Shown here: in pieces, positions 4,590 through 31,111 of the stretch
Numbering within the stretch: the stretch's first letter is position 1
Layout of the letters: every line of letters starts with the position of its first letter
DNA from: an uncultured Candidatus Saccharibacteria bacterium
Lineage (GTDB): Bacteria; Patescibacteriota; Minisyncoccia; Phycocordibacterales; GWA1-40-21
Direction: 5' to 3'
DNA: 46,549 nucleotides
NCBI GenBank assembly: GCA_964416925.1
Contig: CAYQFQ010000001.1
Span: 1-46,549 of the forward strand
Made by a program: the position numbers and the translations under genes
The notes under the pieces: model-generated
What the model saw: only the letters and a program-made list of their open reading frames with translations
The model's database searches: none
Told to the model about the DNA's origin: nothing

Positions 4590-4709
4590 GTTTTCCCCTC
4601 TCCTCTTTCTGTCTCTAACTCATACTCAAAAAACATCTACTAAAATGTTATAAGAATACGGAACGAAAGTCAAACCACATAACACAACAAAATCAAAGAC
4701 AAATATATA

Positions 4710-5867
4710 TTAATTGCTCTTAAAAGTCTTAGCAACTGCTTTGACTACTCCTTTATCAAAAGGTTTAGGTAAAATATTATCTACAGTAGGCTTTTTCACA
4801 CACTTTGCCAAAGCCTCCGCAGCTTTAACAAACATTTTTTGCTCAAACTGTTTAATATTGTTATCCAATATTCCGCGGAAAATTCCAGGAAAACCCAAAA
4901 CGTTATTCAGTTGGTTTGGAAAATCAGAACGTCCTGTAGCGACGATAAATGCTCCAGCACTTTTTGCGATATCGGGCATTATTTCTGGTATTGGATTTGC
5001 CAAAGCAAAAATTATCGGCTTTTCATTCATTGTCTCTACCATCTCTTTTGTAACAAGCCCTGCTTTACTAACCCCAATGAATATATCTCTTCCTTTAATA
5101 GCTGTCGCTAAATTGCCTGAAATCTTTTCAGATCCTCCTGTCTCTTTTTTTACCAAACTAATCAGTTCTTTCTTTTCGATATTAAGATCTTTTCTATCTT
5201 CAGAAACAATTCCGTGACTGTCAGCAAAAATTATTTTCTTAAACCCATAACCGACGAGCATCTTAGTAATTGCTGTACCAGCAGCACCAATTCCGTTTAT
5301 TAATATCTTTGCATCTTCTTTTTTTATCTTCCTCAACTTCAAAGCATTTATTAGCGCCGCCAAAACCACAGTAGCAGTTCCATGTTGATCGTCATGCATT
5401 ACGGGGATGTCTAGTTCCGCCCTCAATCTTTTCTCTATCTCAAAACATCGAGGTGCAGAAATATCTTCAAGATTTATTCCACCAAACACGGGGGCAATCT
5501 GTTTAACAACTTTTATTATTTCCTCGGTGTCTTGAGTATCAAGACAAATTGGAAATGCATCTACACCTGCAAATTCTTTGAACAAAAGCGCCTTCCCCTC
5601 CATGACAGGTATTGCACCTTTCGCGCCGAGATTGCCCAAACCCAAAACAGCTGAACCATCCGAGACAACGGCAATCATATTTTTCTTAATTGTGTATGTG
5701 TAAGCTAGTTTCGGATCTCTTGCAATCTCAAGACATACCTGTCCAACACCAGGAGTATAAGCTAAGGACAAATCATCTTTATTCTTTACAGCAACCTTTC
5801 CTTTTATTTCTATCTTACCTGAGAACTTCTTGTGTAAAGCTAAAGATCTTTCATTTACGTTTTTCAT
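4710..5867 (-). CDS. maeB: NAD(P)-dependent malic enzyme (short form)
   Basis: LAYTPGVGQVC, VVSDGSAVLGLGNLG and PVMEGKALLFKEFAGVDAFPICL are characteristic malic-enzyme motifs. Confidence 0.85.
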   Translation of the reverse strand: MKNVNERSLALHKKFSGKIEIKGKVAVKNKDDLSLAYTPGVGQVCLEIARDPKLAYTYTIKKNMIAVVSDGSAVLGLGNLGAKGAIPVMEGKALLFKEFAGVDAFPICLDTQDTEEIIKVVKQIAPVFGGINLEDISAPRCFEIEKRLRAELDIPVMHDDQHGTATVVLAALINALKLRKIKKEDAKILINGIGAAGTAITKMLVGYGFKKIIFADSHGIVSEDRKDLNIEKKELISLVKKETGGSEKISGNLATAIKGRDIFIGVSKAGLVTKEMVETMNEKPIIFALANPIPEIMPDIAKSAGAFIVATGRSDFPNQLNNVLGFPGIFRGILDNNIKQFEQKMFVKAAEALAKCVKKPTVDNILPKPFDKGVVKAVAKTFKSN

Positions 5868-29563: not shown

Positions 29564-30436
29564 TTAATTCAAATTATTTTCTGCATCAATAAATTCATCT
29601 AAATCACCTTCAAGAACCTTATCTATATTGCTAGTTTCCACATCTGTTCTGTGGTCTTTTATCATCTTATATGGATGAAATACATAAGAGCGAATTTGAT
29701 TACCCCAATCAATTGAAACTGACTTACTAATGAACAAACCTCTTTCTTGAAGTTTCTTTTCTTCTTCCCTCTTTGCAAAAATTTTACCTTTCAAAATCTG
29801 AATTGCTTTTTCTTTATTTTGCGCTTGAGATCTTTCATTTGCGGAACGAACAGAAATACCAGTAGGAATGTGAATTACTTTTACTGCAGTTTCTCTTTTG
29901 TTCACATTTTGCCCTCCTGGGCCACCAGCCTTAGACATCTCAAATTTCAATTCTGTTTCTGGAACATCTAAGTCAGTATTTTTATCAATCTTTGGAACTA
30001 CCTCAACCATCGAAAAAGAAGTCTGTCTTAAACTTTTTGAATTGAAGGGCGAAAGACGGACTAGACGGTGGACACCAGATTCTTTTTTTATTTCACCGTA
30101 AATATTTTTTCCAGAAATTTCCAATGTTATATTCCGGTATCCTCCGTGATCATTCTCAGTTTCATCTATTACTTTATAACTCCAGCCCCTATTTGTAAAA
30201 AACTTTCCGTACATCTCGAAAAGAATTCGTGAAAAATCTTCGGCATCATCACCGCCAGCACCTGAGAAAATAGTCATAATAGCGTCACCTTTGTCATATT
30301 TATCTTTGCCTTCGATTTCATCCTTGAGAGATTGCATTTCCTTTAGTAATGACTGAGCTTTAATCTTATCAGCCCAAAAATCAGCTTGTAACATGAGCTG
30401 TTCTATTTCCATTATTCTTTTCTGCTTGTCTTCCAT
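29564..30436 (-). CDS. prfB: peptide chain release factor 2 (short; no programmed frameshift seen)
   Basis: SPF tripeptide (RLSPFNS) and GGQ (GPGGQNVNK). 290 aa, with domain 1 shortened. Confidence 0.85.
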   Translation of the reverse strand: MEDKQKRIMEIEQLMLQADFWADKIKAQSLLKEMQSLKDEIEGKDKYDKGDAIMTIFSGAGGDDAEDFSRILFEMYGKFFTNRGWSYKVIDETENDHGGYRNITLEISGKNIYGEIKKESGVHRLVRLSPFNSKSLRQTSFSMVEVVPKIDKNTDLDVPETELKFEMSKAGGPGGQNVNKRETAVKVIHIPTGISVRSANERSQAQNKEKAIQILKGKIFAKREEEKKLQERGLFISKSVSIDWGNQIRSYVFHPYKMIKDHRTDVETSNIDKVLEGDLDEFIDAENNLN

Positions 30437-30562: not shown

Positions 30563-30756
30563 AAAAATACACGGAAGCCGTTGACCAGGAGACTAGGAAG
30601 TCTGATTGGTCACAAATTTCTTTCGTCGTCACTCAAGAAATTTTCGACCCCAGCTTGTATGTTTTTTCTACTGAAAAAACATTACTTCGCTTTTCAATCC
30701 TGACACGTGTGCAAAGCAGTTTGCACACTCAACAGCACCCTCCGTTACACTACGGG
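30563..30756 (-). ncRNA. tRNA-Thr(GGU) mirror trailer ending in a 15-nt copy of the tRNA 3' end
   Basis: Minus-sense order: GCTGTTG (anti-acceptor, one G:U), hairpin GTGTGCAAA..TTTGCACAC, CAGGATTGAA (anti-T), U-rich stem with AGTA loop (30662-30679), hairpin with loop GAGTGACGACGA (30608-30649), TCCTGGTCAACGGCT (30576-30590). Confidence 0.55.
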
Positions 30757-31006
30757 AGCCGTTGACCAGGATTGAACTGGTGACCTTGTCATTCGTTTAC
30801 ACCTCATCTTACGAGAGGACTAGACTGTATCTTTCCGCCTGAGGCGGACCCTTGTCAGTCGTTCGAGCGCTTTTTATAGCGCTACGGTCTTGTCCTTTTT
30901 AAAAGGAGATTAACCGTAATTCGGGATTCATATAAAAGTTACCAATTATATGGGCAGGGGTTCACGACCCACCAATGACATGCTCTACCAACTGAGCTAC
31001 AACGGC
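30757..31006 (-). tRNA. tRNA-Thr(GGU) interrupted by a 177-nt intron (30794-30970) after anticodon position 36
   Basis: Exon 1 (31006-30971): GCCGTTGTAGCTCAGTTGGTAGAGCATGTCATTGGT. Exon 2 (30793-30757): AATGACAAGGTCACCAGTTCAATCCTGGTCAACGGCT. Joined, they give a canonical 73-nt cloverleaf with loop TTGGTAA. Promoter TTGAAA-N17-TATTCT upstream. Confidence 0.8.
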
Positions 31007-31111
31007 AAAACAACACTTCGTAAGAATAGCTTATTTATTAAACTTTTTCAATCTAAAAACCACACCGTGCTGGTGTGGTTTTTTAAACTCTTGCGAGCTT
31101 GACCCATTACT

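Follow-up and report, generated by a model that had tools for sequence, protein, structure and literature searches.

A very probable compact, ORF-less group I intron in a tRNA-Thr(GGU) gene of a Patescibacteria genome

A tRNA-Thr(GGU) gene of a Patescibacteria (CPR) genome is interrupted in its anticodon loop, which raises the question of what the insertion is and whether a tRNA can still be produced from the gene. Bacterial tRNA group I introns at position 36/37 have been known since 1992. The gene lies in a 46,549-nt stretch of DNA (the window), for which a previous inspection of the letters alone (the sequence-only reading) had proposed a group I intron, possibly an unusually reduced one. 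Here, window positions 30794-30970 (minus strand) were assigned, with a probability of about 0.92, to a compact, ORF-less group I intron of IC3-like architecture, located between U36 and A37 of tRNA-Thr(GGU).

The 5' exon (nucleotides [nt] 1-36; 31006..30971, minus strand; 36 nt, GCCGUUGUAGCUCAGUUGGUAGAGCAUGUCAUUGGU) ends in CAUUGGU, that is, in G34, G35, and U36. The 3' exon (nt 37-73; 30793..30757, minus strand; 37 nt, AAUGACAAGGUCACCAGUUCAAUCCUGGUCAACGGCU) starts with AAUGAC. Between them lies the intron (30970..30794, minus strand; 177 nt, GGGUCG...GUAAACG), which was supported by ARAGORN with introns, Rfam, our covariance model R1, and covariation. When introns were allowed, ARAGORN returned tRNA-Thr(ggt) i(37,177), c[30755,31006], which is the same intron. 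The joined exons were then used as a BLAST query against 36 relatives. An uninterrupted tRNA-Thr(GGU) gene in a genome of the same family but another genus (G005:C18:15983-16055, locus L180) was 100% identical to the predicted joined exons (73/73 nt), each exon matching the corresponding nucleotides of the uninterrupted gene, and 89 to 97% identical genes were present in eight further genomes of the family. Since a one-base shift at either junction no longer gives the L180 sequence, the junctions are placed exactly. The L180 and window loci also agree in the flank AATAAGCTATTCTTACGAAGT upstream and in the tRNA-Thr(CGU) gene downstream, and they are therefore orthologous. Thus, the exon/intron boundaries are exact, and both the 73-nt joined tRNA and the insertion between nt 36 and 37 that had been read from the letters hold at these coordinates.

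For the comparative analysis, about 100 homologues (96 distinct) were collected, nearly all of them at position 36/37 of tRNA-Thr(GGU). They were obtained by BLAST in 60 relatives, by running R1 (built from 13 MAFFT-aligned copies and a hand-drawn structure) on 301 genomes of the order, and by scanning 185,579 species genomes for an exact 17-mer motif, which gave at least 80 loci. Among the motif matches listed, the intron was found at 78 of 80 loci; two loci, in Halomonas and Methanobacteriota, were rejected as chance matches with no intron there. Of the full-length strong matches listed, 67 of 71 were called as tRNA-Thr(GGU) with the split at 36/37 once the intron had been removed, and the other four were truncated loci or boundary slips. 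With R1, the window intron scored 203.5 bits. The motif scan fixes 17 core bases by construction; hence, conservation was counted separately in 37 sequences found without the motif. In these, P7, J6/7, J7/3, and the AUA of J8/7 were also invariant.

Two alignments were used to evaluate the fold. A1 contained 13 sequences aligned by MAFFT and was fitted to no structure, while A2 contained the 96 distinct sequences aligned to R1. Because A2 was fitted to our own model, it leans towards the structure, which is offset by A1 and by RNAalifold on the MAFFT alignment. Standard pairs filled 93.7% of cells in A1 (81.5% in shuffles), with 27 pairs changing on both sides, and 91.7% in A2 (75.5% in shuffles), with 35 such pairs. 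The covariation score was 0.377 for A1 and 0.444 for A2 (0.144 and 0.150 in the respective shuffles), and none of 500 shuffles reached the observed values for either alignment. When partners were slid by 1 to 3 columns, pairing fell to 31 to 44% in A1 and 30 to 45% in A2. Compensatory changes were found in the P1 extension, P2, P5, P6, P8, P9.0, and P9. P4 and P7 are invariant and P3 is nearly so; these three helices are supported by complementarity and position, since covariation cannot probe them. RNAalifold on A1 independently returned P1, P2, P4, P5, P6, P7, P8, and P9.

All intron elements described below lie on the minus strand. The 5' strand of P1 (30968..30973) consists of exon GGU and intron GGG, the latter being the P1 extension, and U36 forms a U·G pair at the 5' splice site. 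Its 3' strand, the internal guide CCUGCC (30953..30958), was located in the comparative alignments. The G-C, G-C, and U·G pairs were kept in 96, 96, and 95 of the 96 sequences, and the extension covaries (GU/AU/UA/GC and GC/AU), in line with the GGU/GCC pairing and the splice-site U opposite G that had been read by eye. The P2 hairpin (CAUAUAA..UUAUAUG; 30929..30952) is capped by the GNRA loop GUAA (L2), and all seven of its pairs change on both sides.

The next helix had to be reassigned. The sequence-only reading had taken GACC and GGUC for P3. This pairing was rejected, as it showed no covariation and was identical to shuffles, and, of its four pairs, one was broken in 31 and another in 57 of the 96 sequences. 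The U and C of GGUC are free to vary (pairable in 39/96 and 65/96) and covary with the far strand of P8 instead. The segment GACC, which is invariant, forms the 3' strand of P4. As judged from the alignments, P3 is instead formed by CCC (30923..30925) and GGG (30851-30849), giving three G-C pairs that abut P8. In the 96 sequences, 99.7% of the cells of this helix are paired; a change from C to U gives U·G in five cells and U-A in one. No extension of P3 was found in the columns flanking CCC and GGG, which do not pair. Covariation links the U that follows GGG to the base just beyond the far strand of P8, and this U is therefore part of P8.

The P4-P6 space, which had been described as holding one hairpin alone, contains P4, P5, and P6. 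It is preceded by J3/4 (GAAU; 30919..30922), which is invariant in 96/96. P4 (ACGGUU/GACCGU) encloses J4/5 (AAUC), P5, and J5/4 (CAA) at 30884..30917; its strands are complementary and invariant, except that the last pair changes from U·G to C-G in eight sequences. In the P5 hairpin (UCCUUU-UAA-AAAGGA; 30893-30907), all six pairs change on both sides, and no A of J4/5 or J5/4 varies in the 96-sequence alignment. The AGCGCU hairpin is P6 (AGCGCU-AUAAAA-AGCGCU; 30866..30883), in which five of six pairs change on both sides.

The catalytic side of the core follows. J6/7 (CGAAC) and the 5' strand of P7 (GACUG) are located at 30856..30865 and are invariant. J7/3 (ACAA), also invariant, and the nearly invariant 3' strand of P3 occupy 30849..30855, where P3 forms a pseudoknot with P7. 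The P8 hairpin (UCCGCC-UCA-GGCGGA; 30834..30848) abuts P3 without a spacer; all of its pairs covary, including the extra closing pair U-A (columns 251/323 of A2 and 144/177 of A1). J8/7 (AAGAUA) and the 3' strand of P7 (CAGUC), at 30823..30833, were aligned to the Rfam consensus AAGAUAUAGUC at high posterior. All 96 sequences contain CAGUC and the J8/7 bases AUA, and the remaining J8/7 positions are kept in 88 to 95 of 96. P9.0 pairs GU (30820-30819) with AC (30796-30795) around P9 (30795..30820 in all) and covaries, with pair counts of GC 62, AU 29, and GU 4 for one pair and CG 48, UA 40, and UG 5 for the other. The P9 hairpin (CCUCUC-GUAA-GA(U)GAGG; 30818-30802), with a GNRA loop (L9), also covaries. 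The terminal nucleotide of the intron, 30794, is the omega-G and is a G in 96/96, so the earlier observation that the intron ends in G extends to all homologues.

Thus, the insertion has the organization of a group I intron: P1 with a guide and a U·G pair, an omega-G, P3-P8 and P4-P6 packed around P7, and a P3/P7 pseudoknot. P7 (GACUG/CAGUC) is kept in 96/96, each position of J8/7 in 88 to 96 of 96, and the guanosine site is predicted from sequence. In the window copy, every helix pairs perfectly, and the intron folds better than shuffles (z = -3.0). A P10 pairing of the 3' exon AAUGAC with the guide region was sought and none was evident; in the RNAalifold structure, the exon sequences CAUU and AAUG pair with each other and lengthen the anticodon stem by two pairs. 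The group I proposal is therefore supported by helices, junctions, the U·G pair, the omega-G, and covariation over 96 homologues. The P2, P7, P8, and P9 pairings first read by eye were all recovered by comparison, P7, being invariant, through complementarity and position.

Tertiary contacts were also considered. L2 is a GNRA tetraloop in 95 of 96 homologues. A motif in P8 resembling the 11-nt receptor (CUAA[AG]..UAUG) accompanied L2 GAAA in 17 of 40 sequences and other loops in 0 of 56 (Fisher p=2.8e-8, indicative only, as the sequences are related). In Azoarcus, L2 GAAA is combined with the P8 receptor CCUAAG/UAUGG, according to the sequence in Williams' seed alignment. The type of L2 appears to covary with the P8 receptor, as expected from Azoarcus. 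In the window copy, both L2 and L9 are GUAA and face plain CC:GG helices in P8 and P5, respectively. L9 is a GNRA loop in about 39 of 96 homologues, and a contact of L9 with P5 is proposed for the GUAA subtype of the window only.

The homologous introns measure 171 to 269 nt (median, 193 nt). The window intron is 28 nt shorter than that of Azoarcus (205 nt, and also 205 nt by our count of Williams' aligned seed). Six other Williams seeds, chosen by eye as shorter looking, were all at least 193 nt. The description of the intron as unusually reduced thus stands for its length (177 nt, below the 205 nt of Azoarcus) and fails for its architecture, as no domain is missing. Its compactness arises because the peripheral helices are short, P6a is absent, and P3 has 3 bp, and not because a domain is missing. 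Among the homologues, L006:1394-1672 (minus strand; genome G028) carries a structured insertion of about 90 nt in P9 (intron, 266 nt), and P8 and P5 are enlarged in L040/L115 (intron, 269 nt). Peripheral loops of the homologues thus appear to accept insertions while the core stays fixed.

As reported previously, the number of intron-split bacterial tRNA types has been raised from 4 to 21, and Rba53.Thr.5Ug is among the seed sequences of that work (Williams 2020; bioRxiv 10.1101/2020.01.27.920355). By that author's definition, the window intron is a "Thr.5Ug" intron: tRNA-Thr, anticodon-loop position 5, U(-1), and omega-G. The Azoarcus tRNA-Ile(CAU) intron (Ile2.5Ug) is likewise at position 5 in this scheme, and the shared insertion site suggested by the sequence-only reading is thus correct. 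The novelty that the reading implied was overstated, as the Thr.5Ug class is already in this catalogue. With the published Thr.5Ug seed, the window intron has in common the host gene, the site after nt 36, U(-1), omega-G, and the P1 pairing of exon GGU with guide GCC. Only the seed shows an Azoarcus-like core, a 6-bp P3 (CCGCUC/GGGCGG), P4 UUCGGGG, P6 with P6a, and J6/7 GUAGA, whereas the window lineage has a 3-bp P3, P4 ACGGUU, a plain P6 hairpin, and J6/7 CGAAC; this separation is drawn against a single published seed, Rba53.Thr.5Ug. The window intron is a member of a widespread family of an already catalogued class; the observation is sound but not new.

Compared with the Azoarcus intron, the window intron is alike in its anticodon-loop position, the 3-bp exon-guide P1 with an extension, P9.0, GNRA loops on both P9 and P2 (the latter docking on P8), the lack of an ORF, and the lack of large peripheral domains. 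It differs in being 28 nt shorter, in having a P3 of 3 bp (6 bp in Azoarcus), and in the absence of P6a. Azoarcus uses GAAA loops and 11-nt receptors, whereas the window copy has GUAA in L2 and L9 with plain CC:GG; other homologues use GAAA and a receptor. Self-splicing has been demonstrated for Azoarcus, whereas the window intron is known here from its sequence. With respect to subgroup IC3, the small size, the lack of an ORF, the anticodon-loop site, P2 without P2.1 or P5abc, and the L2/P8 covariation fit, while P3 length, J6/7, and the absent P6a differ. Some CPR tRNAs are reported to carry group I introns that hinder their detection (Lui et al. 2021; PMC8172020), and a recent preprint deals, by its title, with group I introns in Patescibacteria tRNA genes (Nakagawa et al. 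2025; bioRxiv 10.1101/2025.07.03.662931). The phylum and the type of element are shared with the window intron. A literature search, which did not extend to the text of Nakagawa et al. 2025, found no paper that speaks of a "smallest group I intron" or a "divergent group I intron".

The split gene was invisible to default ARAGORN and to Rfam at the gathering threshold. The RF00028 (Intron_gpI) search proposed with the sequence-only reading gave a mixed outcome: the intron aligned over the whole model at 18.8 bits (E=0.016), with the J8/7-P7 signature AAGAUAcAGUCUAG placed at high posterior, but the gathering score of 50 was not reached. Because 18.8 bits lies below the cut-off of 50, standard annotation misses this intron. 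The missed gathering score reflects a limit of the model and not a structural failure, because 0 of the 12 RF00028 seeds are bacterial according to Williams 2020. A similar result was obtained with relatives: in 10 of the 14 scanned, Rfam Intron_gpI gave no match (E<=1) at the Thr intron, and the family maximum was 29 bits. In the Yanofskybacteria MAG L099, each of two neighboring tRNA genes (4707-4931 and 5042-5229) contains a group I intron. That of the first gene, which seems to be a tRNA-Tyr(GUA) interrupted after nt 35, scored 61.9 bits, above the cut-off, and the Thr(GGU) intron only 23.1 bits. According to the tRNAscan-SE 2.0 paper, that program was not designed to detect such tRNA group I introns.

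The intron was found in 52 of the 301 genomes of the order (~17%), in 45 of 191 genera, and in 26 of 401 genomes of the phylum (~6%). One genome of the order had two matches, and the intron was otherwise single-copy. Within the family of the window genome, presence and absence alternate inside each genus. In a weakly resolved FastTree of 38 introns (172 columns), most copies of family f1 clustered together, one copy of genus g4 (genome G009) fell in the distant GAAA/receptor subtype, and a copy from Niastella populi nested among the CPR copies. These observations agree with an intron that was inherited vertically for the most part, was often lost, and was occasionally transferred. Two subtypes occupy one tRNA site within genus g4, L011 (G009:C43) versus L003, L005, and L006 (G020, G036, and G028); the subtypes are GUAA loops with plain helices and GAAA with the 11-nt-type P8 receptor and an enlarged P9. 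Such a mixture points to replacement or transfer of the intron without the help of an endonuclease gene.

Niastella populi CCTCC AB 208238, a Bacteroidota isolate with a genome of 8.6 Mb, carries a CPR-type tRNA-Thr(GGU) gene with a 181-nt intron (L124:5196-5450, minus strand). The gene adjoins a tyrosine-integrase ORF, a TrwB/HerA-like ATPase, a resolvase, and an rve transposase (L124:430-7998). A native uninterrupted tRNA-Thr(GGU) is located elsewhere in the genome (L197:1501-1573), and the intron was absent from 120 other sampled genomes of the Niastella family. From its sequence context, the split gene appears to encode a spare tRNA, acquired horizontally and carried by a mobile element. 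In intron mode, ARAGORN shifted this intron by two bases and called tRNA-Arg(gcg) i(35,181); therefore, such calls need to be checked against U(-1) and omega-G.

The host assembly (G000; 749 kb, 57 contigs, 98% complete) belongs to Patescibacteria (CPR), and the split gene is its sole GGU threonine tRNA. Genes for the CGU and UGU isoacceptors are present and uninterrupted. As tRNA-Thr(UGU) might read ACU and ACC codons, the GGU tRNA may be dispensable. The intron sequence is single-copy in the genome; R1 found this intron alone and no second group I intron. A 12.8-bit RF00028 match at G000:C13:2526-2807 was rejected as noise, because deletion of every plausible interval gave no tRNA in ARAGORN. 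In the host assembly, ARAGORN detected 31 tRNA genes and none for Met, Ile, Lys, or Phe. As R1 and RF00028 detected no further group I intron, these genes are likely to be unassembled or otherwise disguised.

An adenylate kinase gene lies upstream of the split tRNA; tRNA-Thr(CGU), a release-factor gene, and genes for an ABC-ATPase and an FtsX permease domain (FtsE/FtsX-like) lie downstream. The release-factor gene (29564-30436, minus strand) encodes 290 amino acids with a PCRF match that begins at profile position 94, so that domain 1 is probably shortened. As the sequence-only reading had stated, there is no homing endonuclease gene: no ORF occurs inside the intron, and no recognizable endonuclease-like ORF was found in the 640 nt upstream. 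A candidate sigma-70-like promoter (TTGAAA-17-TATTCT; 31023..31051, minus strand) matches the consensus only and scores no better than shuffles. Its second hexamer overlaps part of AATAAGCTATTCTTACGAAGT, just upstream of the tRNA, which is conserved in the intron-less L180. The final 15 nt of tRNA-Thr(GGU), AGCCGTTGACCAGGA (plus strand; 30757-30771), are repeated at 30576-30590, 13 nt ahead of tRNA-Thr(CGU). The two copies flank a structured trailer of about 180 nt (30563-30756, minus strand).

If the intron follows the standard group I pathway, as we infer, the pre-tRNA would fold so that exon G34-G35-U36 pairs with guide GCC, with U36 in the U·G wobble of P1. P3-P8 and P4-P6 would pack around P7, while the GNRA loops L2 and L9 would dock on P8 and P5. 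P7 would bind a free guanosine, which would then attack after U36. Omega-G 30794, set by P9.0, would take the place of the guanosine, and the 3'-OH of U36 would attack after it, releasing the 177-nt intron and the 73-nt tRNA-Thr(GGU). Splicing of the window intron is expected from its sequence, and the intron-less L180 gene, being identical to the predicted product, lends it indirect support. Splicing without protein is suggested by the intact core, the covariation between the conserved GNRA L2 and the P8 receptor, and the host range.

With a 3-bp P3 and no evident P10, the ribozyme could need folding help. The intron might then be a group I intron that is not self-sufficient, whose minimal core needs a protein cofactor or an RNA chaperone in vivo, as many organellar introns do. 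The short P3 (CCC/GGG only), the lack of an evident P10 with the 3' exon, and a length 28 nt below that of the well-studied self-splicing Azoarcus intron are all compatible with such a dependence. However, the conserved GNRA L2 covaries with its P8 receptor, which points to an RNA-only scaffold like that of Azoarcus, and P3 stacks directly on a covarying 6-bp P8. The very different hosts, including a Bacteroidota isolate, argue against a lineage-specific protein, and no linked candidate cofactor gene is present in the window. We therefore regard dependence on a protein as unlikely.

The gene could also be a dead relic, an inactivated tRNA-Thr(GGU) from which the intron is no longer spliced while tRNA-Thr(UGU) covers its codons. 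The tRNA-Thr(UGU) and tRNA-Thr(CGU) genes do exist, and the intron has been lost from, or was never present in, many relatives. Nevertheless, decay is very improbable given that the exons match, at 100% identity, an uninterrupted gene that looks functional, that all family-invariant positions of the catalytic core are intact and all helices pair perfectly in the window copy, and that compensatory changes over 96 sequences indicate long-term selection on the fold. An insertion of another type, for example a bulge-helix-bulge intron like those of archaea, a fragment of a group II intron, or a miniature mobile repeat resembling the tRNA-trailer modules, would agree with the subthreshold Rfam score and with a genome rich in structured repeats beside tRNA genes. 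This is scarcely credible: the intron sequence is single-copy in the genome and lacks the direct or reverse tRNA-tail copies that define trailer modules, its site is 36/37 and not 37/38, and its helices, junction sequences, U·G pair, and omega-G are of the group I type. A compact group I intron thus remains the preferred reading.

The finding bears on annotation in this group. Default ARAGORN or Rfam runs make the host genome seem to be without tRNA-Thr(GGU), although the gene is present, and introns below the Rfam threshold would be picked up by a covariance model made for them, such as R1. In addition, the roughly 100 natural versions of this very small group I core should help to define what the fold minimally requires. 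The CPR lineage is at the short end (171 to 177 nt), with a 3-bp, all-G-C P3 stacked on P8. It is conceivable, though somewhat doubtful, that the CPR tRNA-Thr(GGU) introns are protein independent, smaller than any characterized group I ribozyme, and able to spread without an endonuclease of their own; the last part is proposed because one genus shows a subtype swap and because the integrase-bearing Niastella populi element carries a CPR-type copy. If this is true, structural studies of ribozymes would gain a new minimal scaffold from nature, and the cultivable Niastella populi would be a tractable host.
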